From a phage: a DNA stretch of 64,000 bases. Positions within the stretch are counted from its first letter, which is position 1. The number at the start of each line of letters is the position of its first letter. The notes under the pieces are model-generated. The model did no database searches and had not been told where the DNA came from. It was given only the letters and a program-made list of their open reading frames with translations. The DNA lies in the sequence record PZ386959.1; one strand, given 5' to 3'. Position numbers and translations under genes: made by a program. Below are positions 3,930 to 63,899 of this stretch, piece by piece.

Positions 3930-5276
3930 ATGAGTTCGAATATCTTCAGACTTGCTGATAGATTATTCAACCAACCTTTACTAGCCACTGAATCATTAGC
4001 TCACTCAGCAGCAACTTATGTGAATAACAGATTGCTGGGTGATGTCCAAGCAGCAGTAAACTTTGATAAACCCAAAGGTGAAGCAAGAAGTCTTTTAAAA
4101 GTAAAAGATGACATTGCTATTATCCCTATTATGGGTGGTTTAACCCATCGTATGACATTCATTGATGCAATGTGCACAGGTGGTTTAAGCTCTTATGAAG
4201 GTTTACGTAGAGGCTTTGACGAAGCTTTAGCAGATGAGTCAATTAAGACTATTGTTCTGCATATTGATTCTGGTGGTGGTGAAGCTTCAGGTTGCTTTGA
4301 ATTAGCACGTCACATTATGGCTTCAAGAGGCCAAAAGAAAATTATTGCTTATGTAGATGAGTTCGCTTGTTCCGCTGCATATGCTCTTGCATCTTCTGCT
4401 GAAGAAATTATTGCATCACCAGATGCAGATGTTGGTTCTATTGGTGTAATCATGGTTCATCAGGAATTAACTAAGGCATTTGAAAAGAATGGCGTAACAA
4501 TTAACGTCATCAAAGCTGGTGAGTTTAAAGGTATGGGTTCACCATTCCAAGCACTCTCAGAAGAAAGCAAAGAAAGACTTCAAAAGAGGATTAATGATAC
4601 CTACGCAACCTTTACAGGTTTTGTAGCCGAATCTCGTAATCTCTCTGAAGAAGCTGTAAAGAATACTGAGGCGAATGTTTATTCTGCTCAGGAAGCTCTT
4701 GAACTTGGTTTAATTAACTCAATCATGTCTCAAGATGATTTCTTAAATTACTTACAAGGTTCTGAAGAGGCTCCTGTAAGTTTAAACGTTAACAATTCAG
4801 GTGAAGAAATGACTGAACAAGAAAAGCAAGAACTAGAAGCTTTGCGTCTTCAGGTTGCTCAAATGAAAGCTAAAGAACAGGAAGCTGCTTTGTCAGATTT
4901 GACTAATAAGATTTCTGCTTCTGCTGAAGCTTTTGGATTTGATGCAAAAGAAGCTGCAACGACTATTTTAGGTGCTGGTCTTGATAACCCTCTGAGTGTT
5001 CTGTTTATGAATGCTATGGAAGGTGCTAACCAGAAACTTAATGAAACTATCGCGTCCCACGCTTCTGCAATGGAAGAAAAAGAATCAGAAATTACCAAGC
5101 TGAAAGAAACTGCTGGTGCTGTTCTTGAACATTCCAACGCTATGGAAGAAATGGGTAATGACGGCGAAGCTGATTTGGTTGAAGAAGAAAAAGAACCAGC
5201 TAAGAATGCTTCCGAAGACACCGCTGAACAACGCAAACTGGCTCTCCAGAATGCTCTAAAATCTCTTATTAAATAA
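3930..5276 (+). CDS. prohead protease of S49/SppA type with a C-terminal coiled-coil scaffold-like domain
   Basis: Segment HIDSGGGEASG...DEFACSAAYALASSAEEIIASPDADVGSIGV resembles the S49 peptidase core; the C-terminal third is Ala/Glu/Lys-rich and predicted coiled coil; sits between portal and capsid genes as lambda gpC/Nu3 does. Confidence 0.65.
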   Translation: MSSNIFRLADRLFNQPLLATESLAHSAATYVNNRLLGDVQAAVNFDKPKGEARSLLKVKDDIAIIPIMGGLTHRMTFIDAMCTGGLSSYEGLRRGFDEALADESIKTIVLHIDSGGGEASGCFELARHIMASRGQKKIIAYVDEFACSAAYALASSAEEIIASPDADVGSIGVIMVHQELTKAFEKNGVTINVIKAGEFKGMGSPFQALSEESKERLQKRINDTYATFTGFVAESRNLSEEAVKNTEANVYSAQEALELGLINSIMSQDDFLNYLQGSEEAPVSLNVNNSGEEMTEQEKQELEALRLQVAQMKAKEQEAALSDLTNKISASAEAFGFDAKEAATTILGAGLDNPLSVLFMNAMEGANQKLNETIASHASAMEEKESEITKLKETAGAVLEHSNAMEEMGNDGEADLVEEEKEPAKNASEDTAEQRKLALQNALKSLIK

Positions 5277-11258: not shown

Positions 11259-19277
<8,019 letters not shown>

Positions 19278-19279
19278 TA

Positions 19280-20467
19280 ATGGCGGTAGGTGAAATTCAA
19301 ATTAGTGCCTTGCCTCAAGCAGCCTTACCAATTGACCTTAGTGATATCTTCCATCTTAAGCAGGGTATTGAGGATAAGAGATGTACTCTTGAGCAATTAC
19401 TTGCTCCACACTCAAGCCTAAGAAATAACCCTCATGGTGTTACTAAAACACAAATTGGTTTAGATAATGTTATTAATGCTCTTCAGTTAGTTGCTGCAAA
19501 TAACTTATCAGATGTTGTTAATGTAGCTGAGGCAAGAGCAAATCTACAGATTATGTCTTCAGAAGAGGTTAATAACCTTGTTCAACAGCATATTCAGGAC
19601 AAGAGCAACCCACACAATACAACTAAGGCACAGGTAGGGTTGAGCAATGTCCAGAACTGGACAACATCGAACCTTTATAACGAAGATGCAGATAAGTATG
19701 CTACAGCAAGAGCAGTAAATAACTTGTACAAGGCTGTTCAGGCTTCTTATCCAGTAGGTACTATCCATCTTTCTATGAACTCTGCAAACCCTTCTACATA
19801 CTTAATTTGTGGAGGAACTTGGGAGTTAGTTTCAAAAGGTAGAGCATTGGTTGGTTATGACTCTGACACAAGACCAGCAGGTTCTGTATTTGGTGCTTCA
19901 ACTGTTACTTTGTCAGTTAATAACATGCCTCAACATTCACACTCCGTGTCTCTTAGTGGTGGTGGTCATGCTCATAATGCAACTGTGTCAATTTCAGCTT
20001 TTGACTATGGAACTAAGACTACCAACTCTTTTGACTATGGAACTAAGACCACTAACACAACTGGTAACCATAACCATGTTGGTAGTGGGTCAACAAGTTC
20101 TGCTGGTGCTCATAACCACAGATTGACCTATGAATCAGGTGGTGGTTTATCGGAAAGACCTGCAATGGTTTGGTCTTCAAGGAATGACCAATCATGGTAT
20201 TCAGCAGATGCTGTCTGTGAAGTAGCTGGTGCACACACTCACTCTTTCAGTGTTACCACTAACACAACTGGTAACCACAACCATACGGTTGGTATTGGTG
20301 CTCACAGCCACACAGTTGGTATTGGTTCACATACACACAATGGTACTGTAACAGTTTCTTCTTCTGAGCATACGCATAGCGGGAACACTAATAGTGTTGG
20401 TGGTGGACAAGCTTTCAACATTGAGCAGCCATCCTTTGTACTGTATGTATGGCAGAGAACAGCTTAA
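19280..20467 (+). CDS. tail fibre protein with C-terminal His-rich collar-type domain
   Basis: C-terminal region has repeated HxH/HxHxH segments (HSHSVSLSGGGHAHNATVS, NHNHVGSG, AHTHSFSV, AHSHTVGIGSHTHNG) and the ending QAFNIEQPSFVLYVWQRTA typical of phage tail collar domains; contains a 30-nt tandem duplication. Confidence 0.65.
   Translation: MAVGEIQISALPQAALPIDLSDIFHLKQGIEDKRCTLEQLLAPHSSLRNNPHGVTKTQIGLDNVINALQLVAANNLSDVVNVAEARANLQIMSSEEVNNLVQQHIQDKSNPHNTTKAQVGLSNVQNWTTSNLYNEDADKYATARAVNNLYKAVQASYPVGTIHLSMNSANPSTYLICGGTWELVSKGRALVGYDSDTRPAGSVFGASTVTLSVNNMPQHSHSVSLSGGGHAHNATVSISAFDYGTKTTNSFDYGTKTTNTTGNHNHVGSGSTSSAGAHNHRLTYESGGGLSERPAMVWSSRNDQSWYSADAVCEVAGAHTHSFSVTTNTTGNHNHTVGIGAHSHTVGIGSHTHNGTVTVSSSEHTHSGNTNSVGGGQAFNIEQPSFVLYVWQRTA
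19999..20058 (+). repeat. 30-nt tandem duplication inside tail fibre 1
   Basis: TTTTGACTATGGAACTAAGACTACCAACTC followed by TTTTGACTATGGAACTAAGACCACTAACAC, encoding FDYGTKTTNS twice. Confidence 0.8.
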
Positions 20468-20513: not shown

Positions 20514-22901
20514 ATGGCAGATTACAAGTTGAGTGAATTAAACTCAATTGATACAATCCGTTCAGACGACCTTCTTCATGTCAGAGTTAAAAAGAGACCT
20601 GAAATGCTGGGTGATGAAGACCGTCGAATGACCTATCAAGACTTCTTAGCATCTTTTAAACTTGAAAGATTTGTTCAGATTGCTGGTAGTACTATGACGG
20701 ATGATTTAGGGATTGTTAAGCTACTTTATGGTGGTAAAGTAGTATTTAACCCAACAGGCTCTTCTGAGATTAATATTGGGGACGTTTTAAAGACTTTTAA
20801 AATTAACGCAAATGGTCTTAAGCTAACTGTTGCAGATGCTTCAAGGTCGGCAACTGTTTATCATACTCTGAATAAGCCAAGCCCTAGTGAGCTTGGGATG
20901 AGAACTAATGAAGAGAATGACACGAGATACTCAAGATTAGCTGCAAATAACACCTTTAGAGGTACTCAAGCTATTCTCTCTGACAATGAAGCCCTTATTG
21001 TTAAGAATATCACACAAGGGATGCCACTCTATATTCGTGGTCAAGATGCAGATGGCACCAACAGATGGTATCTAGGCAATGATAATAAAGGCACAGACAA
21101 CCTTGTTTTAAAAAACGTTAAATCTGGTGCATACGTAGCGATTTTAGCTAACCTAATCTCTGTGAATAAATCAATTCAAATCACTGGTCAAGTTCAACCT
21201 TCTGATTGGACTAACTTAGATGCTAGGTATTTTACTCAGACAGCAGCTAATCAGAGGTTTGCACAGTTAGCTGGTGATAATACCTTTAGAGGCGTGAATA
21301 CATTTAATCAAATCCTATCAATTGAGACGAATAGTGCAGCCTTAAGGTTAAAAAATACTGTAGCTAATGGTGCACTGTACATTAAAGGTGAAAGTAATGA
21401 TGGCTCTGGTAAGTGGTATGTAGGTAATGGTGATAATACACCTGCCGTATTAATTCACAACTATACATATGGGTCTAATCTTAGACTCGACAATGGTTAT
21501 GTTGAGGTTAATAAGCAACTTAAAGTCGTTGGTCAAGTTCAACCTTCTGATTGGACTAACATTGATTCTAGATACATTCCAGCGGCTACTTTGAGTAATC
21601 TTGCTAAACTAAGTGATGTAAACACTTTCAGGTCTGTACAGGTTATCAATCTGAATGGCTCATTATTACAGCTAAAGAACACTACACAAGACAGAGAGCT
21701 ATACTTTGCTGGTCATAATGCTGATGGTGTTAGAAGGTGGTACATTGGTAATGGGGAACCATCCAACCCAACAAGGTTTACTATCCGTAACGACAGAACT
21801 GCAACTACGCTTTATATGCAAGATGATTTCTTGTTGGATAAAAATGTCAGAATTACTGGTCAAGTTCAACCTTCAGATTTCTCTAACTTAGATGCTAGAT
21901 ATTTCTTGAAAACAAAACTATTAAACCAATCTTTAATGACAAGGACAGCTAATAGACTGGATGACCCATCATCATTCAACAAAGATTATTCAGGATTTGT
22001 AAGAAACAACGCTATTGAGCAGGGTCTGAAAGATTTAGCCATCCATGTAGCACATTCTGCTGGTATTGCTCATGCCAGAGGTATCGCTTTTACATATGGG
22101 TCTAAAGGTCTTGATGTCTTCACATACGCTTATGGGTCAGATGGAGCATATGTTGGAGAGGCACAGTTGTATTCAACGGTATTTAAACCAACCCCTTCAG
22201 ATATTGGTGCATACACTAAAGTAGAAACTGACCAGAAAATTGCAACAGCAATTAGTGACTCTACAGACCTTAATAAAATCTATCCAGTAGGCATTGTAAC
22301 GTGGTTTAACAGTAATGTTGACCCTAACACAGCGTTGCCTGGGTTAACTTGGACGTACCTGAACAATGGTGTTGGTAGAACTATCAGAATCGCAGCAGCT
22401 AACGGTTCAGATGTTGCTACAACTGGTGGTTCAGATTCTGTAACATTAGCTGTTGGTAACTTACCATCACACACTCACAGCTTCTCTGCTACCACTTCAT
22501 CTTTTGATTATGGTACGAAGAGCACTAATAGTACTGGTGGTCACACCCACACTGTAAGTGGTACAACAAGTGCTGCGGGTAACCATGCTCACCACTTAGG
22601 TCTGCTATTGGTTAATGGTGGTGATGCTCAGTACGGTTATACCACTATTGGTAACAATAAGACAAGAACTCTTGACTGGCTTGACAGAACTGATAACAAG
22701 TTCCCTAACACTAACACAACTGGTAACCATACACACACATGGTCTGGTACTACAAGCAACACTGGCGCTCACACCCACTCTGTAGGTATTGGTGCTCACA
22801 CCCATACAGTTAGTGGTAACACTGGTAGTACAGGTTCTGGTTCAGCATTTAGTGTTACTAACCAGTTCTATAAGTTAATGGCTTGGGTAAGAACTGCTTA
22901 A
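20514..22901 (+). CDS. tail fibre protein (long), with triplicated internal module and C-terminal His-rich collar-type domain
   Basis: Three copies of a module containing ITGQVQPSDWTNLDARYF / VVGQVQPSDWTNIDSRYI / ITGQVQPSDFSNLDARYF; C-terminus has HTHSFSATT, GGHTHTVSG, NHAHH, AHTHSVGIGAHTHTVSG and ends ...FYKLMAWVRTA. Confidence 0.65.
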   Translation: MADYKLSELNSIDTIRSDDLLHVRVKKRPEMLGDEDRRMTYQDFLASFKLERFVQIAGSTMTDDLGIVKLLYGGKVVFNPTGSSEINIGDVLKTFKINANGLKLTVADASRSATVYHTLNKPSPSELGMRTNEENDTRYSRLAANNTFRGTQAILSDNEALIVKNITQGMPLYIRGQDADGTNRWYLGNDNKGTDNLVLKNVKSGAYVAILANLISVNKSIQITGQVQPSDWTNLDARYFTQTAANQRFAQLAGDNTFRGVNTFNQILSIETNSAALRLKNTVANGALYIKGESNDGSGKWYVGNGDNTPAVLIHNYTYGSNLRLDNGYVEVNKQLKVVGQVQPSDWTNIDSRYIPAATLSNLAKLSDVNTFRSVQVINLNGSLLQLKNTTQDRELYFAGHNADGVRRWYIGNGEPSNPTRFTIRNDRTATTLYMQDDFLLDKNVRITGQVQPSDFSNLDARYFLKTKLLNQSLMTRTANRLDDPSSFNKDYSGFVRNNAIEQGLKDLAIHVAHSAGIAHARGIAFTYGSKGLDVFTYAYGSDGAYVGEAQLYSTVFKPTPSDIGAYTKVETDQKIATAISDSTDLNKIYPVGIVTWFNSNVDPNTALPGLTWTYLNNGVGRTIRIAAANGSDVATTGGSDSVTLAVGNLPSHTHSFSATTSSFDYGTKSTNSTGGHTHTVSGTTSAAGNHAHHLGLLLVNGGDAQYGYTTIGNNKTRTLDWLDRTDNKFPNTNTTGNHTHTWSGTTSNTGAHTHSVGIGAHTHTVSGNTGSTGSGSAFSVTNQFYKLMAWVRTA

Positions 22902-22980: not shown

Positions 22981-23178
22981 ATGCCTACAATCCTAGCAAT
23001 TCTTCTAAAAAATCTAGGTAGCTTCTTCTGGAAACTCATTTTATCCCTTCTAAGTGAATACATGATTGAGAAAGTGTTCTTTAGGCTTGCAAGATACCTT
23101 GCGAGTAAAACAGACACACCTATTGATGATGAGTTCGTAGATAACTTAGAAAAAGCTTTTAAGGGGGAGAATAAATGA
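22981..23178 (+). CDS. small hydrophobic protein (possible membrane protein)
   Basis: 65-aa ORF with a hydrophobic N-terminal half (ILAILLKNLGSFFWKLILSLL); lies after the fibre genes behind a promoter-like site. Confidence 0.35.
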   Translation: MPTILAILLKNLGSFFWKLILSLLSEYMIEKVFFRLARYLASKTDTPIDDEFVDNLEKAFKGENK

Positions 23179-23546
23179 AGTGGCTAGAGGAAGCTTTTAA
23201 AAATAATATTGGTGCAATTGTAGTTGGTATTTTTAGTGTTATTGGGATGTATACCACGATGCAAGTTTCAAGTGGTAAACAAGAAGTGTCTGTCACAACA
23301 AAGTTACAGCAGCTAGATAATTATTCCAAAAGTAACTATTCAGCTATTCGTGATTTACAGTCTGACATGAGACTGATTCAGCTAGGGATGGAGAACCAGA
23401 AAGTTCAGTTAGAGAATGTTAAGGGTGAAAACGCAAAACTTACCAAAACTCTTGATAAATTCTCTGACAGTGTGAATAATCTGGCTCAATCAGTATCAGC
23501 CCTCCAAGCTATTACTGAGAAGAACACAAAGAATACTGAAAAATAA
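23175..23546 (+). CDS. single-pass membrane protein with coiled-coil domain
   Basis: 123-aa ORF with N-terminal transmembrane segment (IGAIVVGIFSVIGMY) followed by a heptad-like Q/L/N-rich region; followed by a bidirectional terminator. Confidence 0.35.
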   Translation: MKWLEEAFKNNIGAIVVGIFSVIGMYTTMQVSSGKQEVSVTTKLQQLDNYSKSNYSAIRDLQSDMRLIQLGMENQKVQLENVKGENAKLTKTLDKFSDSVNNLAQSVSALQAITEKNTKNTEK

Positions 23547-29157: not shown

Positions 29158-30294
29158 TTATTCATAATCCCTAATAACTAGCCCTACAGGGAACTGTAAA
29201 GACCCCTTACGAGTCATCTTCTGGAACTGAACCGTTAAAGGTTTCCCGATAAACTCTTCAGGATGTTCAGCAAGATACTGTTTCTTCTCGTGTGTAGTTT
29301 TCCATGAAACATCTACAAAGACGTTAGGAAGAGTCTCTACAACGAACTTACCATGACCACGCTTATCGGTCTTTACACCAGTCACTTTAAACTCTTCAGT
29401 GTGCATCTTCTTGTGCTTAATCAAGAAGTATGAACGGTGACAACACTCATAGAAGGAGTCTTCAGAGATTGAACGGTACATTGCACCTTCAAACTTAGCT
29501 TCAACCCACTTATCATGAGCTTCATCAAACTCTTCCCAAGAATTTACACGGATAGTCTGTACAGGAACCACTCTACAGGTATCCCCAAGCTCAACAATAG
29601 GTGAGTTATCAATAACTTCACGACGCTCAGGCCAAGATTTTGAATTGTCACAGATATCATACCAGTAGAATCTAAGAAGGTGACGGTCTGGATTGTCAGC
29701 ATTCTTAATCATAGATACAATATCTTCTAAGTCCCAACCATGAGCATAAATCTCTCCGTCAAAGTCTTCAACTTGCGGATGTAATTTAAGCAACAAAAGC
29801 AAATCTGGGATTAGTTCTGTTGGAACGTTGTAAACAGTATTCTCACGAGAATAAGCTGTGAAACTGACTGAATCAGCATCTCTTGAAATTCTACAACGGA
29901 CACCATCAAGTTTTGGTTGAGCATCAGCAGGGAACTTCAGATACTTTGCATGACTAACCTTTGCAGCATCATGAGCAAGCTGTACACCTACCTTCTCAGT
30001 ATTCTGTGCAGATTCTTTTGTGTAAGCATAACCTTTACGGTCAACTTGCTTTTTATACTTAGCAGCAACTTCAAAGAGAGCTTGCTGTTCAGCGTTACGC
30101 TCATTCTTTTTACCGATGTTTTTAGGTTCTGCTGTATACTCTTCAAACATCATCTTGCCATTTTCTTTACCGTAGGTTGTAATAACTTTGTCACCTACAG
30201 CAACACATGACCAGACGTTGAAGGAACCGTCTTTATTTTGTTTGTACAGAATTGTCATTTTTAACCTCTGAGTGATACCAAGTGTCGCAAGCAT
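29158..30294 (-). CDS. ATP-dependent DNA ligase
   Basis: Contains the adenylation motif I KLDGVRC (KxDGxR); size (378 aa) fits phage ATP-dependent ligases. Confidence 0.8.
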   Translation of the reverse strand: MLATLGITQRLKMTILYKQNKDGSFNVWSCVAVGDKVITTYGKENGKMMFEEYTAEPKNIGKKNERNAEQQALFEVAAKYKKQVDRKGYAYTKESAQNTEKVGVQLAHDAAKVSHAKYLKFPADAQPKLDGVRCRISRDADSVSFTAYSRENTVYNVPTELIPDLLLLLKLHPQVEDFDGEIYAHGWDLEDIVSMIKNADNPDRHLLRFYWYDICDNSKSWPERREVIDNSPIVELGDTCRVVPVQTIRVNSWEEFDEAHDKWVEAKFEGAMYRSISEDSFYECCHRSYFLIKHKKMHTEEFKVTGVKTDKRGHGKFVVETLPNVFVDVSWKTTHEKKQYLAEHPEEFIGKPLTVQFQKMTRKGSLQFPVGLVIRDYE

Positions 30295-30607: not shown

Positions 30608-30913
30608 TCATTTTCTCTTACTGCCAATCTCTACGTCGATAACTTGAACATAACCAGCAACATCAAACTTATGAATGATGCTTTCCACAGTGTAAGTCCA
30701 ACCATCAATGCGAACCAACTCACCTTCTCGTGGGACGATGGGATTACGTTGAGCTAAGGTTGTAGTGGAGTGAACAACATCATAACAATAGATATAGTTT
30801 ACTAGGACTTCCATCGTGAAAACCTCACTCAATAACCGTAGTGTGTGATTGACCATTTTTGCCATAGCTATAAGATGTTGTTGTTTGGGAGTTTGGACAT
30901 CTGACAACAACAA
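30608..30913 (-). CDS. hypothetical protein
   Basis: ORF from the track; an internal Met start near 30814 would nearly remove the overlap with the upstream lipoprotein gene, so the 5' boundary is uncertain. Confidence 0.3.
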   Translation of the reverse strand: MLLSDVQTPKQQHLIAMAKMVNHTLRLLSEVFTMEVLVNYIYCYDVVHSTTTLAQRNPIVPREGELVRIDGWTYTVESIIHKFDVAGYVQVIDVEIGSKRK

Positions 30914-31094
30914 TATCTCTGCTTATAGCATCACCATGTAACTTGTATACTCTGCAATCTTGCATCTCTGGTGGGAGACTGTAAGAAGCATTTTTATCTT
31001 CATAAGAAGGGTTGCAGCCAGATAGAAAAACAACACCAAGCGCAATTACTGCTTTCCACATAATACTCCCCCAGAGACTGTACATTTTCTTCAT
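30825..31094 (-). CDS. putative lipoprotein
   Basis: N-terminal signal sequence ending in lipobox-like FLSGC (MKKMYSLWGSIMWKAVIALGVVFLSGC). Confidence 0.45.
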   Translation of the reverse strand: MKKMYSLWGSIMWKAVIALGVVFLSGCNPSYEDKNASYSLPPEMQDCRVYKLHGDAISRDIVVVRCPNSQTTTSYSYGKNGQSHTTVIE

Positions 31095-31324
31095 AGCAAC
31101 TCCAGAATATCAATACGTTCACCTTTGAGTACTCCAGTACGGTCTTTTGCAATCTTACCTTCAACAATAAGAATGTGTGCAGACCTTAAAGTGTCACTGT
31201 TAAAGGTTTTTACGAACCTACTAGGCATGACTACAATGCACATCTCCTGAATCAGCTCTGGAGTATAGCAGTTATCATGAAGTTGCTGAATAACGTCTGC
31301 AAGTGTCATTTTTGATGTCTCCAA
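31091..31324 (-). CDS. hypothetical protein
   Basis: 77-aa ORF, overlapping junctions with both neighbours. Confidence 0.3.
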   Translation of the reverse strand: METSKMTLADVIQQLHDNCYTPELIQEMCIVVMPSRFVKTFNSDTLRSAHILIVEGKIAKDRTGVLKGERIDILELL

Positions 31325-31576: not shown

Positions 31577-34276
31577 TCAGTGAACCTCAAGCCAACTCTT
31601 TCCAACCTTACCTGTACCAGTTACAAGTGTTTCTTTCTTAAGACCTAAGTTCTTAGAAGCTTGCCCGTAATACCAATCAGTAACTGCTTTTACTTCTGCC
31701 GTCATACTCTCTGGACATTCCCAGCTAGTCTCATCGTGATATGCGCACAATAAGCGAGCACCTATAGCTGGTTTACGCCCATTTAGCTTCATCAACCCTT
31801 CGTCAATCATGCGACGACAAGCAAGGTTAATTGCCTCATTTTGAATCTGGGCCTCTGAACCCATCAAAAGGTAGTTCAACAGTTTGTGTGGAGATTTACA
31901 CCACAACCAAGCTCCAGCAACCTTTACAAAACCCCCTTTAGAGATTGCAGCAGTCTTACCAAACACCTCTTCAAGTGCCTTTTTAGTTGCTTTGTAGTCA
32001 GCTTCCAAGTCATCTAGTAGCTTCTTAATTTTAGGCAAACGAATAAAGTAAGTTTGTTTAGTCAGTGCACCTTCCTGAGTAGTTGCAGCTTTAATCGTCT
32101 TAGCAAACTTCTCATCCCCTGCACCGAACAGCAGTGCATAGATACCATTCTTAGCTTTCTTACGGCCTTTGCTAATCTCATGAAGAAGGTTCTCATCCTG
32201 AGTAGCTCGACAAGTCAAGATGTCCTGCTCATCATTCAAGCTAAAGTAAATACTGTTCAGTGTATGTGCATCAGTCCCTGAATAGACAACGTACAGGTCA
32301 TTCTCAGAGTCATAGCGAAGGTACTTATCAATCTCTGGGTTGAGGTACTCATCAAAATGTTTGCAGTAATAGCGTCCATCTTCTTGACGAATAAACTCAA
32401 TCTCTTCTTTACCTTGCGTTACCGCTTTGGTGAACTCTTTATCACCCATAAAGTTACAAAGAAGAACTAGCTGGGCTGAGTTCATATCTACAGAGACAAC
32501 GTTAGTACCTTCCTCACAAATCCACACTGCCCTCATTGGTTCCCCATAGACAGCAGCACCAGACGGTACGTTTACAATACCATATTGTGTCATACGTCCA
32601 GTTGAAGTACCAAACACCATTGCGCCAGCACTAAGGCGACCATCAGGACGAATCTGGTTCAACCAACCTTTTTCATCATCCTTTGAGTTCTCAATAGTTC
32701 TGCGTCTGTGCATCAAAGTATAGTACTTAGCAATCTTCTGTCCAAGCTCACCTTCAATCGTATCATAAGATGATTCCGTAAGTTTTGGTGAAGTACGGAT
32801 TAAGCAAGGTTCAAGCAAATCTGTGTACTTCTTCACAGACCAGTTATGCTCGATGTACTGGACGCCTTCATGCTCGACATAACTCAATCCACACCGTTCT
32901 ACCATCTCCTGCCACTTAGGATGTTTTGTAATCATCTTTTTATTGTCTTTGAAACGACAAACTTTGACAGGGCGACCGTCTGAGTCTTTCTTGTAGTTCC
33001 AGTCATCTGGAATCCAACCAACTGATTTCAAGTAGTCTTTTACAACTGCTACCTGAGTCATACGAGAAACTTCAAACTCAATTGGTGTATATGGTGCATC
33101 AATCAATCCTGTGTAGCGACTTGACTCAAGTTCAAAGTGGTTAACAACGTGGCTGTTATAGTACTTCACAGTTTTGACTGTTTTTACTGGCTTCCAGTCT
33201 TTGCATTTCTTACCAATCTTTGCATTCAACTCATTGCAAATTGCACGAGCATCCTTCATTGCTACAAAGCCTTCCTTGTACTCTTCACCAGTTACAGAGT
33301 TGGTTGGTGTATAGCAATTTCTCTTTTCAATGTTAAAAATCTTTGTAGTTGGCTTACCAAATGGTTTGATTTCATAAGTCTGCATCTCACCATTACGCAC
33401 CTGCTGACGATACTTCGTCTTAGGGTACTTGGTAATTCTTTTCAGTCCATCTGCATGACCAAATGCTTCAACATACTCATTCCAAGCTTTTGCAAACTCT
33501 TCTCCAGTGACTTTACCTTTGGTCTTAATAGTTGGAGGTAGATGTGGTTCAACCTCTGAAGCAAGCTCATTAGTCAACTTGTCAAGTTCCTTTACATGGA
33601 ACTCCATAAGCTCTTTATCAGCTTTCCAACCATTGATAGCTTGTTGACTCATCCAGAAAGATGTTTCTTTAGCTCGCATATAGGTTTCATAAGTGTCTAT
33701 ACCACACTTCTTAAGCTTCAGGTATTCATTATCCAGTGCACGTTTAGTTTTGGCGTTAATACGGATATCTTCTACAACACGAGTGAAGATTTCTGCATTC
33801 CACACACCCCAATGTTCAATCTCTGGTTTACGGACACCAACACGAGCACCCCATGCAGCCAAGCCATGAGCACCTTTATAGCCTTTTGGAGTTGGTCTAT
33901 CCATCCACTGAACACGAGACTGGATAAGAGAATCCTGAAAGAAATTACTCCACGGTTTACACTTTGGATTATCAAAGTTCCACAAATCAGGTGCAATGTG
34001 ATTGAAAACCCACCAGTCATATCCTAGACCATTGTGGATGCAAAGTCGTTTTGCCTTTAACGCAAACTCAATACCTTCACGTAAGCCGCCCTTAATGTAC
34101 TTGGTATACTTGTGACCGAGGATAGGCTCATCTGTAAAGACCCATACAGGTGGCTCTTCATCGTCAGATTTATAGTCTGCGAAAGCCATTACGTGCACTT
34201 TAGTGAACTCAAGGAGTAAACCATCAGTTTCTGTATCACCAACTAAATGTAAGTTTTTAAAATCTACGTTTTCCAT
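31577..34276 (-). CDS. DNA polymerase, family A, with 3'-5' exonuclease domain
   Basis: Exo I motif DTETDGL near the N-terminus; motif B-like RKKAKNGIYALLFGAG and motif C-like YHDE; start moved to MENVDF (RBS GAGGGAG upstream) rather than the track start at 34306. Confidence 0.8.
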   Translation of the reverse strand: MENVDFKNLHLVGDTETDGLLLEFTKVHVMAFADYKSDDEEPPVWVFTDEPILGHKYTKYIKGGLREGIEFALKAKRLCIHNGLGYDWWVFNHIAPDLWNFDNPKCKPWSNFFQDSLIQSRVQWMDRPTPKGYKGAHGLAAWGARVGVRKPEIEHWGVWNAEIFTRVVEDIRINAKTKRALDNEYLKLKKCGIDTYETYMRAKETSFWMSQQAINGWKADKELMEFHVKELDKLTNELASEVEPHLPPTIKTKGKVTGEEFAKAWNEYVEAFGHADGLKRITKYPKTKYRQQVRNGEMQTYEIKPFGKPTTKIFNIEKRNCYTPTNSVTGEEYKEGFVAMKDARAICNELNAKIGKKCKDWKPVKTVKTVKYYNSHVVNHFELESSRYTGLIDAPYTPIEFEVSRMTQVAVVKDYLKSVGWIPDDWNYKKDSDGRPVKVCRFKDNKKMITKHPKWQEMVERCGLSYVEHEGVQYIEHNWSVKKYTDLLEPCLIRTSPKLTESSYDTIEGELGQKIAKYYTLMHRRRTIENSKDDEKGWLNQIRPDGRLSAGAMVFGTSTGRMTQYGIVNVPSGAAVYGEPMRAVWICEEGTNVVSVDMNSAQLVLLCNFMGDKEFTKAVTQGKEEIEFIRQEDGRYYCKHFDEYLNPEIDKYLRYDSENDLYVVYSGTDAHTLNSIYFSLNDEQDILTCRATQDENLLHEISKGRKKAKNGIYALLFGAGDEKFAKTIKAATTQEGALTKQTYFIRLPKIKKLLDDLEADYKATKKALEEVFGKTAAISKGGFVKVAGAWLWCKSPHKLLNYLLMGSEAQIQNEAINLACRRMIDEGLMKLNGRKPAIGARLLCAYHDETSWECPESMTAEVKAVTDWYYGQASKNLGLKKETLVTGTGKVGKSWLEVH

Positions 34277-34472
34277 TTTTACTCCCTCTAAAATCATTAA
34301 CCTCATACATTACTGCAAAAAATTATAAAAAGCAAGTTGACAATGTACTTGACAAGGTGTTAATCTTTGCGAAGTGGGTTTTTACTTAAAAGGTTACTTA
34401 ACAGTTTAACTATACAGATACTTTAAAACTCTTAAAAGATTATTTAATAGCTTTTAAAAAGCTTTAAAGTAT

Positions 34473-59862: not shown

Positions 59863-60411
59863 ATGAAGAAATTGATTCTAGGTTTGTGCTTAATGTTTAC
59901 AGCACACTTATCTTATGCAGTTGACTGCCCAGAGCTATCAATTAGCCAAAAAGTAAACATGTTAAAAGCTTACCAGTATGGTGAGAATAACATGGGTAAA
60001 GGTTGGGGTATCACTCTAGCTGCTATAGCCTTACAAGAGTCAGAGTTAGGTCTGAAGGTAGAGAATAAAAAGACACATGATTATGGTATTTTCCAGAATC
60101 ACTTGAAGACTGTTGTAAAGCGTAACAAAATTAGTCCTAATGTGGCTAAAAAGAAACTCTTAAGAGACTTTGACTATGCTGCAAAGGAAACGCACAAAGA
60201 ACTTGAATTTTGGACAAAGGTGCATGGTCAGCCAAAGTCAAAGAAAACTTTACAAAAAGTTTTAGCATCATATAATGCTGGGTATTCGTACAGAATCCCT
60301 AAAGCTAAAAAATATTCTCAAGATGTCTATAACAACATGAAAGTTATCGCTCAATGTGAATTTGCAACAAACATTTCTAAGGTAAATCATGAAAAAATTA
60401 AGAAAGTTTGA
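59863..60411 (+). CDS. secreted lytic transglycosylase (SLT domain); candidate endolysin or periplasmic murein hydrolase
   Basis: Signal peptide MKKLILGLCLMFTAHLSYA; SLT-like motifs AIALQESELG, DYGIFQ and AYNAG-like LASYNAGYSY. Confidence 0.55.
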   Translation: MKKLILGLCLMFTAHLSYAVDCPELSISQKVNMLKAYQYGENNMGKGWGITLAAIALQESELGLKVENKKTHDYGIFQNHLKTVVKRNKISPNVAKKKLLRDFDYAAKETHKELEFWTKVHGQPKSKKTLQKVLASYNAGYSYRIPKAKKYSQDVYNNMKVIAQCEFATNISKVNHEKIKKV

Positions 60412-61612: not shown

Positions 61613-61960
61613 ATGACATTTAAAGAGTTCTGTCAAGCTACTTTCATAATTGTTTTCTTAGTTGGGGCGGGTGTCTGGGGAGGGTACTCTTACAGAGACT
61701 ACCAAGTTGCTGAAACTGAGCTAAACAATCAAAAGCTCATAAGTGTTGCTAAAGATGCTTATCAGGAAGGATTAGTTACACTGAGCACCAATTACAAAAA
61801 TGATTTGAAAGATGTGCTTGCTAAGAATAAGCACACAAAAGAGGTACTAACATATGAAAAAACTAAGCCAGAGTTTTATAATGTTTGTGTTACTGATAAT
61901 TATGTCAGGGTGTTCAACGAACAAAGTGAACAGTACATTCAAAAACTCCCAAGTAAGTGA
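61613..61960 (+). CDS. i-spanin (Rz-like inner-membrane spanin)
   Basis: N-terminal TM helix (ATFIIVFLVGAGVWGG) then a charged helical periplasmic domain; an embedded out-of-frame lipoprotein gene starts within it. Confidence 0.5.
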   Translation: MTFKEFCQATFIIVFLVGAGVWGGYSYRDYQVAETELNNQKLISVAKDAYQEGLVTLSTNYKNDLKDVLAKNKHTKEVLTYEKTKPEFYNVCVTDNYVRVFNEQSEQYIQKLPSK

Positions 61961-62123
61961 GAGTGATAAGTACACTCAAGAAGAGTCAAGATTCACTGTC
62001 AAAGGTAATACTGGTAGTGATGTGGCAGCAGCCCTTGAGTTTTATCGTGATGGTTTTTACCAGTGCACAATTAAAGCTAATAACCTTATTGACATGATTT
62101 TATTAGGGAATAAGCAGCAATGA
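61854..62123 (+). CDS. o-spanin (Rz1-like outer-membrane lipoprotein)
   Basis: Signal peptide with lipobox LIIMSGC (MKKLSQSFIMFVLLIIMSGC); begins inside the i-spanin gene in another frame and extends past its stop. Confidence 0.5.
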   Translation: MKKLSQSFIMFVLLIIMSGCSTNKVNSTFKNSQVSESDKYTQEESRFTVKGNTGSDVAAALEFYRDGFYQCTIKANNLIDMILLGNKQQ

Positions 62124-63113: not shown

Positions 63114-63899
63114 ATGGGTATTGTAAAAATCATCAATGGTGATATCTTTGCAGCATTTGATAAAGGTAAGTTTGATGTCATCGGTCACGGTTGCAACTGT
63201 ATGAATTTAATGGGTGCAGGTATCGCTGACAAGATTTCTAAACTTTACCCAAAAGCATATGAGACCGATACAGAAGTTTATCTATATGCAGGTGGTATAG
63301 GACATAAACCCTGTGAGGATTTACTAGGTAATATCTCTGTAGCACGTTTAGAACAAGGCCGTATAGCTAACCTCTACACTCAGCTTAAAACTGGTAAAGA
63401 TGCCAGATACAGTGCTTTAGAGTCATCTTTGAAGAAACTTAACAGGTACTGTGAAGTCAATCAGTTGAAGAAAGTTGGTTTACCTATGATTGGTGCAGGT
63501 ATCGGTGGACTTGACCCTCAAGCTGTCACCGTTATCATCAATCAGGTGATGAAGAGTGTAGATGTGTATCTATATGTCTATGAAGGAGAGATGTACCACA
63601 AGTTACGCTCAGGTTGGAAGAACTACTGTGAACCAGAATACTTTGCAGGTGTAGTTGTGTTCACGGATAATGCAGTTACCCTCTTCAGACGAAGAAAAGG
63701 TAAGATACATCAAAGTAACCCTCCGGTTGAGAAGATGTCTCTAAGTAACGCTCTAGTTACCCACCTGTCGAAGAGCAATCACAGAATTGCAGTAACATTT
63801 GGCAGTGATGCAGATGCTTATGCCTATGCAAGAACTGATGAGGATATTGAGTTAATCTTCTCTTCACCAGAGCTTACCTTCTTAGACGCAAAGAACTAA
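63114..63899 (+). CDS. macro-domain protein (ADP-ribose binding/processing) with C-terminal extension
   Basis: N-terminal IINGDIFAAFDKGKFDVIGHGCNCMNLMGAGIADKI and later GLPMIGAGIGGLDPQAV resemble the two conserved macro-domain blocks (GDIT...AIVNAAN..GGGV and ...P.I.TG..G). Confidence 0.5.
   Translation: MGIVKIINGDIFAAFDKGKFDVIGHGCNCMNLMGAGIADKISKLYPKAYETDTEVYLYAGGIGHKPCEDLLGNISVARLEQGRIANLYTQLKTGKDARYSALESSLKKLNRYCEVNQLKKVGLPMIGAGIGGLDPQAVTVIINQVMKSVDVYLYVYEGEMYHKLRSGWKNYCEPEYFAGVVVFTDNAVTLFRRRKGKIHQSNPPVEKMSLSNALVTHLSKSNHRIAVTFGSDADAYAYARTDEDIELIFSSPELTFLDAKN

Follow-up and report, generated by a model that had tools for sequence, protein, structure and literature searches.

A predicted DUF4884-family lipoprotein encoded among the replication genes of a Felix O1-like phage

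Introduction

What might a small lipoprotein do for a phage when its gene lies among those for DNA replication? The question is raised by an open reading frame in a 64,000-nt stretch of phage DNA (PZ386959.1; the window, below, is the whole of this stretch). A 4-kb query around the gene matches 264 phage records at 90-96% identity, mostly Felixounavirus, and by these matches the window is that of a Felix O1-like myovirus of this genus. Felix O1-type phages are used in biocontrol cocktails against Salmonella and E. coli, in which an exclusion factor could affect the compatibility of partner phages. At present the gene is a well-conserved one, catalogued in public databases as a DUF without an assigned function.

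The gene, its neighbours and its start codons

An earlier note on this DNA had claimed a small ORF at 30825-31094 on the minus strand. We identified it there, and its translation, with the N-terminus MKKMYSLWGSIMWKAVIALGVVFLSGC, agrees with the one quoted earlier. The ORF (30825..31094, minus strand, stop codon included) encodes a lipoprotein precursor of DUF4884 / PHROG 902, with 89 aa from the ATG of Met1. It is part of a tightly packed, partly overlapping run of minus-strand genes in the order DNA polymerase (31577..34306, minus strand), two small ORFs, the lipoprotein, three small ORFs and ATP-dependent DNA ligase (29158..30294, minus strand). Genes for DHFR and thymidylate synthase lie farther downstream of the ligase. 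The polymerase and ligase genes thus flank the lipoprotein block, and the location that the note had given, in a minus-strand early block near the polymerase, is correct. In the window the polymerase gene is unbroken (909 aa); it is annotated as two pieces in phages 35FD and warpig. Immediately downstream of it, many relatives have an HNH homing-endonuclease gene, and no such gene is present in the window.

Translation could begin at either of two codons. Read from the sequence, a Shine-Dalgarno GGAG (31100..31103, minus strand) stands 5 nt from the ATG of Met1, which shares bases with the stop codon of the 73-aa gene upstream (ATGA). A second Shine-Dalgarno sequence, GGGGGAG (31066..31072, minus strand), is spaced 4 nt from the ATG of Met12 (31061..31059). 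The start equivalent to Met12 (MWK...) is found in most relatives, while others have a different short N-terminal extension, and the corresponding 78-aa form is annotated in Michonne and 35FD. The mature lipoprotein is identical from either start. Three different N-terminal forms occur within the genus, and some metagenomic gene calls are extended N-terminally to 124 aa. The Alf5 orthologue is annotated as similar to Felix01p170, and the warpig record (MN850637) has no CDS over the lipoprotein at 12001..12243.

A promoter and terminator scan of the window gave 15 predictions versus 13.8 in shuffles, which is no excess. The record of a relative, ASO1B, places a promoter before the polymerase gene and a terminator behind the gene for ligase. 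Since the scan does not differ from shuffles, the limits of the transcription unit rest on gene packing and on the annotations of relatives; the lipoprotein gene is probably co-transcribed with the replication genes. One related record, PV390658.1 (phage vB_EcoM_P54), carries a Straboviridae/Tequatrovirus taxonomy line, yet its 88-kb genome is collinear with Felixounavirus and it is probably mislabelled.

Features of the predicted lipoprotein

The lipobox that had been reported at the N-terminus is LSGC (L24-S25-G26-C27, 31014..31025, minus strand), with Cys27 as the predicted acylated first residue of the mature chain. The rule that we applied, of the PROSITE PS51257 type, calls for a positively charged n-region, a hydrophobic h-region and [LVI][ASTVI][GAS]C, with the Cys about 15-35 residues from the start. 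The protein satisfies it both from Met1 (Cys27) and from Met12 (Cys16), and the Cys is kept across the family, which bears out the earlier observation. The putative signal peptide from Met12 (MWKAVIALGVVFLSG; 31017..31061, minus strand) has Lys in its n-region, followed by a hydrophobic core, and the hydropathy maximum of the precursor is at residues 14-22. We consider it very likely, from sequence, that the product is a genuine DUF4884-family lipoprotein, for which lipidation is predicted.

The predicted mature chain (CNPSY...TVIE; 30828..31016, minus strand) has 63 aa, a mass of 7.06 kDa and a pI of 6.1. It contains two further cysteines, Cys47 (30954..30956, minus strand) in the motif LPxE[LM]xDC[KR]xY and Cys66 (30897..30899, minus strand), which probably form one disulfide. 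The most conserved motif of the family, VVRCPNSQTTT, is encoded at 30876..30908 (minus strand) and was also used as a search pattern.

In E. coli, sorting of lipoproteins follows the residue at position +2 (Lol avoidance). The Asn present here would have the protein delivered by Lol to the outer membrane, where it would sit in the inner leaflet and face the periplasm. The +2 residue is not constant across the family and is Asp in 21 of 150 members, so outer-membrane localisation may fail for some of them.

An AlphaFold model from a deep alignment (pLDDT 74, pTM 0.49) has about five short beta strands in the mature part and the signal peptide as a helix; a model from a shallow alignment was poorer (pLDDT 58). 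The mature 63-residue domain is thus modelled as beta-rich. A fold search of the model against the PDB gave no match to a characterised fold, and a search of the PDB with the sequence of the lipoprotein likewise gave no match.

Conservation of the gene

Could the ORF be a chance one, with a fortuitous lipobox and no function? In 20 shuffles of the window, lipobox-positive ORF/start combinations numbered 1.5 per 64 kb on average, versus two loci observed, so that the motif by itself is no more than chance expectation. The second locus is the o-spanin gene (61854..62123), the sole other lipobox ORF in the window. The expected background and the records that leave the gene unannotated would both fit a chance ORF. 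The conservation of the family does not. An exhaustive profile search recovered 659 clusters at 50% identity, all of 61-137 aa. The strict lipobox rule was passed by 150 of 161 sampled proteins (93%), most commonly in the form L[ASTV][GA]C, the median position of the lipid Cys being 17 and the mature part having about 67 aa. In an alignment of 146 sequences the lipid Cys and the second Cys (Cys47 here) are invariant and the third (Cys66) is kept in at least 90%; exactly two cysteines beyond the lipid Cys are present in 115 of 150 members. The consensus from this alignment is LxGC...YxLPxELxDCKxYxL...VVRCPNSxTTTxYxxGK. Rare variants occur at conserved residues (e.g., Tyr for Cys66 in one family member, and RCQNS for RCPNS in ASO1B).

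Substitution patterns agree. Pooled over 12 Ounavirinae genomes, dN/dS of the lipoprotein is 0.13, similar to that of the ligase (0.107) and thymidylate synthase (0.12). The value is 0.55 for the signal peptide, where hydrophobicity alone appears to be constrained, and 0.077 for the mature part. We conclude that the gene is real, because of its 659 clusters, the invariant lipid Cys with the conserved Cys pair, and the low dN/dS of the mature part. These data rule out the chance-ORF reading, to which we give practically no credence.

The DUF4884 / PHROG 902 family and its carriers

The protein matches PHROG 902 at E = 7e-17 (residues 11-87 against profile positions 7-87 of 118). It falls in a 340-member cluster at 90% identity, the representative of which is tagged PF16225 (DUF4884), and the same tag is carried by all 719 relatives found by profile search (719/719). 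These are named only 'hypothetical protein' or 'Lipoprotein', the latter being the UniProt name of some DUF4884 members, and their longest contigs are phage-sized (at most 128 kb). The PF16225 assignment comes from precomputed tags; a local Pfam-A hmmscan reports none in 146 members at E up to 10, perhaps because the local copy lacks this model. Pfam LPAM_1 matches six family members. Otherwise, Pfam, NCBIfam and PADLOC scans of the lipoprotein and its relatives gave nothing meaningful, and weak matches to SIR2_2, ThsA and an InsA zinc ribbon were dropped as far below cut-off. GenBank already holds copies that are identical or nearly so, under the name 'hypothetical protein'. By its profile match and cluster tag, the window gene is an ordinary member of a catalogued family. 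In the literature searched there was no functional paper on DUF4884, and a search on Felixounavirus lipoproteins, lipoboxes and superinfection exclusion (SE) found nothing on this gene. The name DUF4884 has also been given to Bacteroides thetaiotaomicron BT_3183 (PMC8931616).

The family is carried by 585 phage records in a tblastn search. Carriers include Felixounavirus and Mooglevirus, Vequintavirinae, Saclayvirus and other Acinetobacter phages, Eneladusvirus and Asteriusvirus jumbo phages, an Aeromonas Plateaulakevirus, and some 290 Vibrio phages of about 114 kb in which the replication genes are T5-like. Two T4-like Aeromonas phages, Aeh1 and phiAS5, are further carriers according to BFVD. 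The domain is thus common to phages of Enterobacteriaceae, Vibrio, Aeromonas and Acinetobacter and is under strong purifying selection.

The family is nearly absent from bacterial chromosomes and plasmids. A degenerate DNA motif scan of 185,579 species genomes returned three matches, two by chance and one a true copy. Among 72,556 plasmids, family members were found in two, both Acinetobacter elements of about 113 kb. The true chromosomal copy, recovered with the strict motif, is in Hylemonella gracilis ATCC 19624 (4568..4846, plus strand). Its neighbours, a truncated Mg-chelatase/ComM-like gene, an HTH repressor and an ABC-3C CTD10 protein, point to an island or integrated element. Acinetobacter baumannii records of about 111-115 kb with family members are deposited as plasmids; their size and the matching phage family suggest that they are phage-plasmids, or phage genomes recorded as plasmids.

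Genomic context and a possible role in host takeover

When eight unrelated backgrounds were compared, no homologous same-strand neighbour was found within 2.5 kb on either side of the family gene. In six other phage backgrounds the gene is again among small early genes, and an early accessory context was seen in Vibrio, Aeromonas, Vequintavirinae, Saclayvirus and jumbo phages and in a metagenomic phage. In the last of these, the lipoprotein gene is near Tad2-like and NAMPT/NAPRTase genes. The gene thus appears to be a stand-alone accessory module that is exchanged among many unrelated virulent phages of Gram-negative bacteria. Given that no neighbour gene is conserved, the target of the protein is probably a component of the host cell, as opposed to a phage protein dedicated to it.

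Phage SUSP1 (NC_028808) lacks the DUF4884 lipoprotein, from which it follows that the gene is dispensable in the subfamily. Its slot holds a 70-aa gene (31008..31220, minus strand) that is flanked by homologues of both neighbours and has a borderline match to the Tad2-like (anti-Thoeris) Pfam model (24.5 bits, the cut-off being 25). Accessory genes appear to be exchanged for one another at this site. As SUSP1 is without the gene, a published CRISPRi-ART genome-wide knock-down screen of this phage gives no fitness value for DUF4884.

This context would suit a factor for envelope takeover or counter-defence, acting apart from exclusion and keeping the cell intact and productive until lysis. Such a protein might inhibit a periplasmic enzyme of the host (e.g., a peptidoglycan hydrolase or protease), or interfere with an envelope-stress pathway, vesiculation or an abortive-infection trigger located in the envelope. 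The accessory slots are shared with, or filled instead by, genes of anti-defence type (Tad2-like, NAMPT/NAPRTase, and the SUSP1 gene), the gene is stand-alone and widely exchanged, and strong purifying selection is consistent with a conserved host target. However, neither PADLOC models nor known anti-defence families are matched, no known envelope defence is linked to this gene, and neighbourhood in the early region is weak evidence. We regard a takeover or counter-defence function, including the examples above, as possible and rather doubtful. Elsewhere in the window (63114..63899, plus strand) is a gene for a 261-aa protein with a Macro domain (Pfam 1.5e-7), which may process ADP-ribose and could be an anti-defence candidate.

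Lysis genes of the window

Small phage lipoproteins are most often o-spanins, and a role in lysis must therefore be weighed. The lipoprotein could serve as an additional o-spanin, as a unimolecular spanin or in the control of when lysis occurs. In this phage the lysis genes do not stand together, as a gene annotated as holin in several relatives (23175..23546, plus strand) immediately follows the tail-fibre genes, some 38 kb away from the spanins at 61.6 kb; a further lysis gene in another place would not be out of keeping with this.

We identified a complete spanin pair. The i-spanin gene (Rz-like; 61613..61960, plus strand) matches PHROG 1152 at 1e-41, and it is overlapped by the o-spanin gene (61854..62123, plus strand), which has the lipobox MSGC and matches PHROG 4180 and, more weakly, the Rz-like PHROG 456. 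The pair, at 61613..62123, is far from the lipoprotein gene, as the earlier note had indicated. No gene for an i-spanin-like membrane protein overlaps or adjoins the lipoprotein ORF, and with the true pair elsewhere we rejected the o-spanin reading. The u-spanin reading (T1 gp11-like) was also rejected, as there is no C-terminal transmembrane segment and no hydrophobic stretch past residue 27. Moreover, Pro accounts for only 4 of the 63 mature residues, no lysis PHROG is matched, and the gene is among replication genes, not late genes. A lysis-related function is very improbable on these grounds.

Just upstream of the spanin region, a gene at 59863..60411 (plus strand) encodes a 182-aa protein with an N-terminal signal peptide (MKKLILGLCLMFTAHLSYA). 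It belongs to PHROG 600 and has no Pfam match; a lytic-transglycosylase-like 'QESE' stretch was noticed by eye.

Receptor masking

The earlier note had proposed, by analogy with T5 Llp, a receptor-masking protein. On this reading the lipoprotein would bind the phage's own outer-membrane receptor from the periplasm and allosterically block adsorption of sister phages to infected cells or debris, as in SE of the Llp/Cor/Rtp45 type. The size class, the lipoprotein anchoring and the early expression are as in Llp and Rtp45. The exact receptor of Felix O1-type phages has been described as elusive (PMC8594841), which leaves room for a secondary protein receptor.

The analogy does not extend to the mature domain. 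An hhalign comparison with T5 Llp aligned 19 columns and one with Rtp45 aligned 22 columns at 42% probability, in both cases within the signal peptide only, with no homology between mature domains. The family profile searched against the PDB matched only the signal peptides of solved lipoproteins (e.g., FlgP and PqiC), and the fold search likewise offers no support. The proteins also belong to different PHROGs: 902 for the window lipoprotein, 1119 ('Cor superinfection exclusion protein') for Llp and 4281 for Rtp45.

The gene is also not where a receptor-masking gene would be expected. In T5, llp adjoins the RBP gene oad, and rtp45 is beside the tail-tip/RBP module of phage Rtp (rtp44/43). For small siphoviruses, the BASEL authors state that SE factors are encoded at the locus of the RBP (PMC11990801). 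In the window, the lipoprotein gene adjoins no RBP or tail-fibre gene; about 8 kb, with nucleotide-metabolism and ligase genes, separates it from the tail-fibre genes (19280..20467 and 20514..22901).

Co-variation with the fibres was examined with orthologues from 11 Ounavirinae loci and the window. Across both genera, every gene correlates with every other because of the genus split. Within the small sample of nine Felixounavirus genomes, divergence of the lipoprotein was not correlated with that of either fibre gene (Mantel rho -0.12, p = 0.73, and rho -0.03, p = 0.53; limited power at n = 9). In Salmonella phage 35FD the lipoprotein is 99% identical, yet the long fibre is lacking and the fibre set is different. 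The co-variation data are supportive against an Llp-type reading and, with this small sample, not decisive.

What is reported of receptors points the same way. Felix O1-type phages are described as targeting LPS and not protein receptors (PMC8594841), and the same lipoprotein family is found in Vibrio, Acinetobacter and Aeromonas phages with unrelated receptors. In the Drexlerviridae phage Henu8, a gene for a DUF4884 protein in the early arm and one for a Cor SE protein beside the tail genes are reported to occur together (PMC12210894), which also counts against the Llp-type reading. We found no DUF4884 gene in pSf-1, a relative of Henu8, and a tblastn search with the DUF4884 consensus listed no coliphage of roughly 50 kb. 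Thus the Llp-type analogy finds no backing in mature-domain homology, fold, tail-fibre adjacency or co-variation, and masking of the phage's own receptor is unlikely.

Proposed function

The function that we favour, tentatively, is receptor-independent exclusion or envelope protection, as opposed to masking of the phage's own receptor. Purifying selection, the lack of a phage partner gene, and carriers that differ in receptors and hosts together make a conserved component of the host envelope the most likely target. Signal peptidase II would cleave the precursor and leave the lipidated mature domain of 63 residues, and the Lol system would carry it to the outer membrane, with the domain in the periplasm. 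There it would bind a conserved envelope component from the periplasmic side; candidates are an outer-membrane machine and a peptidoglycan-associated or peptidoglycan-remodelling protein. Binding would render the infected cell refractory to further attack or to envelope damage.

There are precedents for such binding, as the non-spanin phage lipoproteins Llp and Rtp45 bind outer-membrane proteins from the periplasm (PMC12685063). The BASEL authors considered receptor masking to be probably futile for glycan receptors (PMC11990801). This weakens the case for exclusion at adsorption and leaves later steps unaffected; some form of exclusion is possible. A bolder proposal is that DUF4884 represents a new and widespread class for exclusion or envelope lock-down, in which a periplasmic domain of about 60 residues, unrelated to Llp, Cor and Rtp45, binds an essential envelope machine (e.g., LptDE, BAM, Tol-Pal or a peptidoglycan hydrolase) and protects the cell whatever the receptor. 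We consider this proposal rather unlikely to hold in full. The probability that remains falls to some other function.

If the protein does bind a conserved envelope component, the family would reveal a vulnerable point, common to Gram-negative envelopes, of which phages make use. The few characterised phage lipoproteins (Llp, Cor, Rtp45 and the spanins) would then be joined by one with a receptor-independent mechanism.

Comparison with known systems

Like Rz1-type o-spanins, the window protein is a small phage-encoded lipoprotein with Cys residues, predicted for the outer membrane. It differs from them in that it has no i-spanin partner, is not Pro-rich and is encoded in the replication block.

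The T4 protein Spackle (Sp) is a small early periplasmic protein of a virulent myovirus that inhibits the tail lysozyme of superinfecting phage and in this way protects the infected cell. It offers a lead for receptor-independent exclusion by functional analogy only, as Sp is helical and is not a lipoprotein.

T5 Llp resembles the window protein in being a small lipoprotein that a virulent phage makes early and whose mature chain has about 60 aa. The target of Llp is FhuA, bound from the periplasmic side (PMC12685063). The two proteins are unrelated in their mature domains, however, and llp is beside oad, whereas the window gene is away from RBP genes and the reported receptor is LPS.

Rtp45 is likewise a small lipoprotein, of about 6 kDa. 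It has no homology to the window protein, and its gene is beside a tail-tip/RBP module; the gene for the Rtp45-like gp84 of pSf-1 also adjoins tail genes. Rtp45 is an SE lipoprotein that binds LptDE, an essential and conserved outer-membrane machine (PMC12685063), and this is the kind of target that we propose for the DUF4884 lipoprotein.
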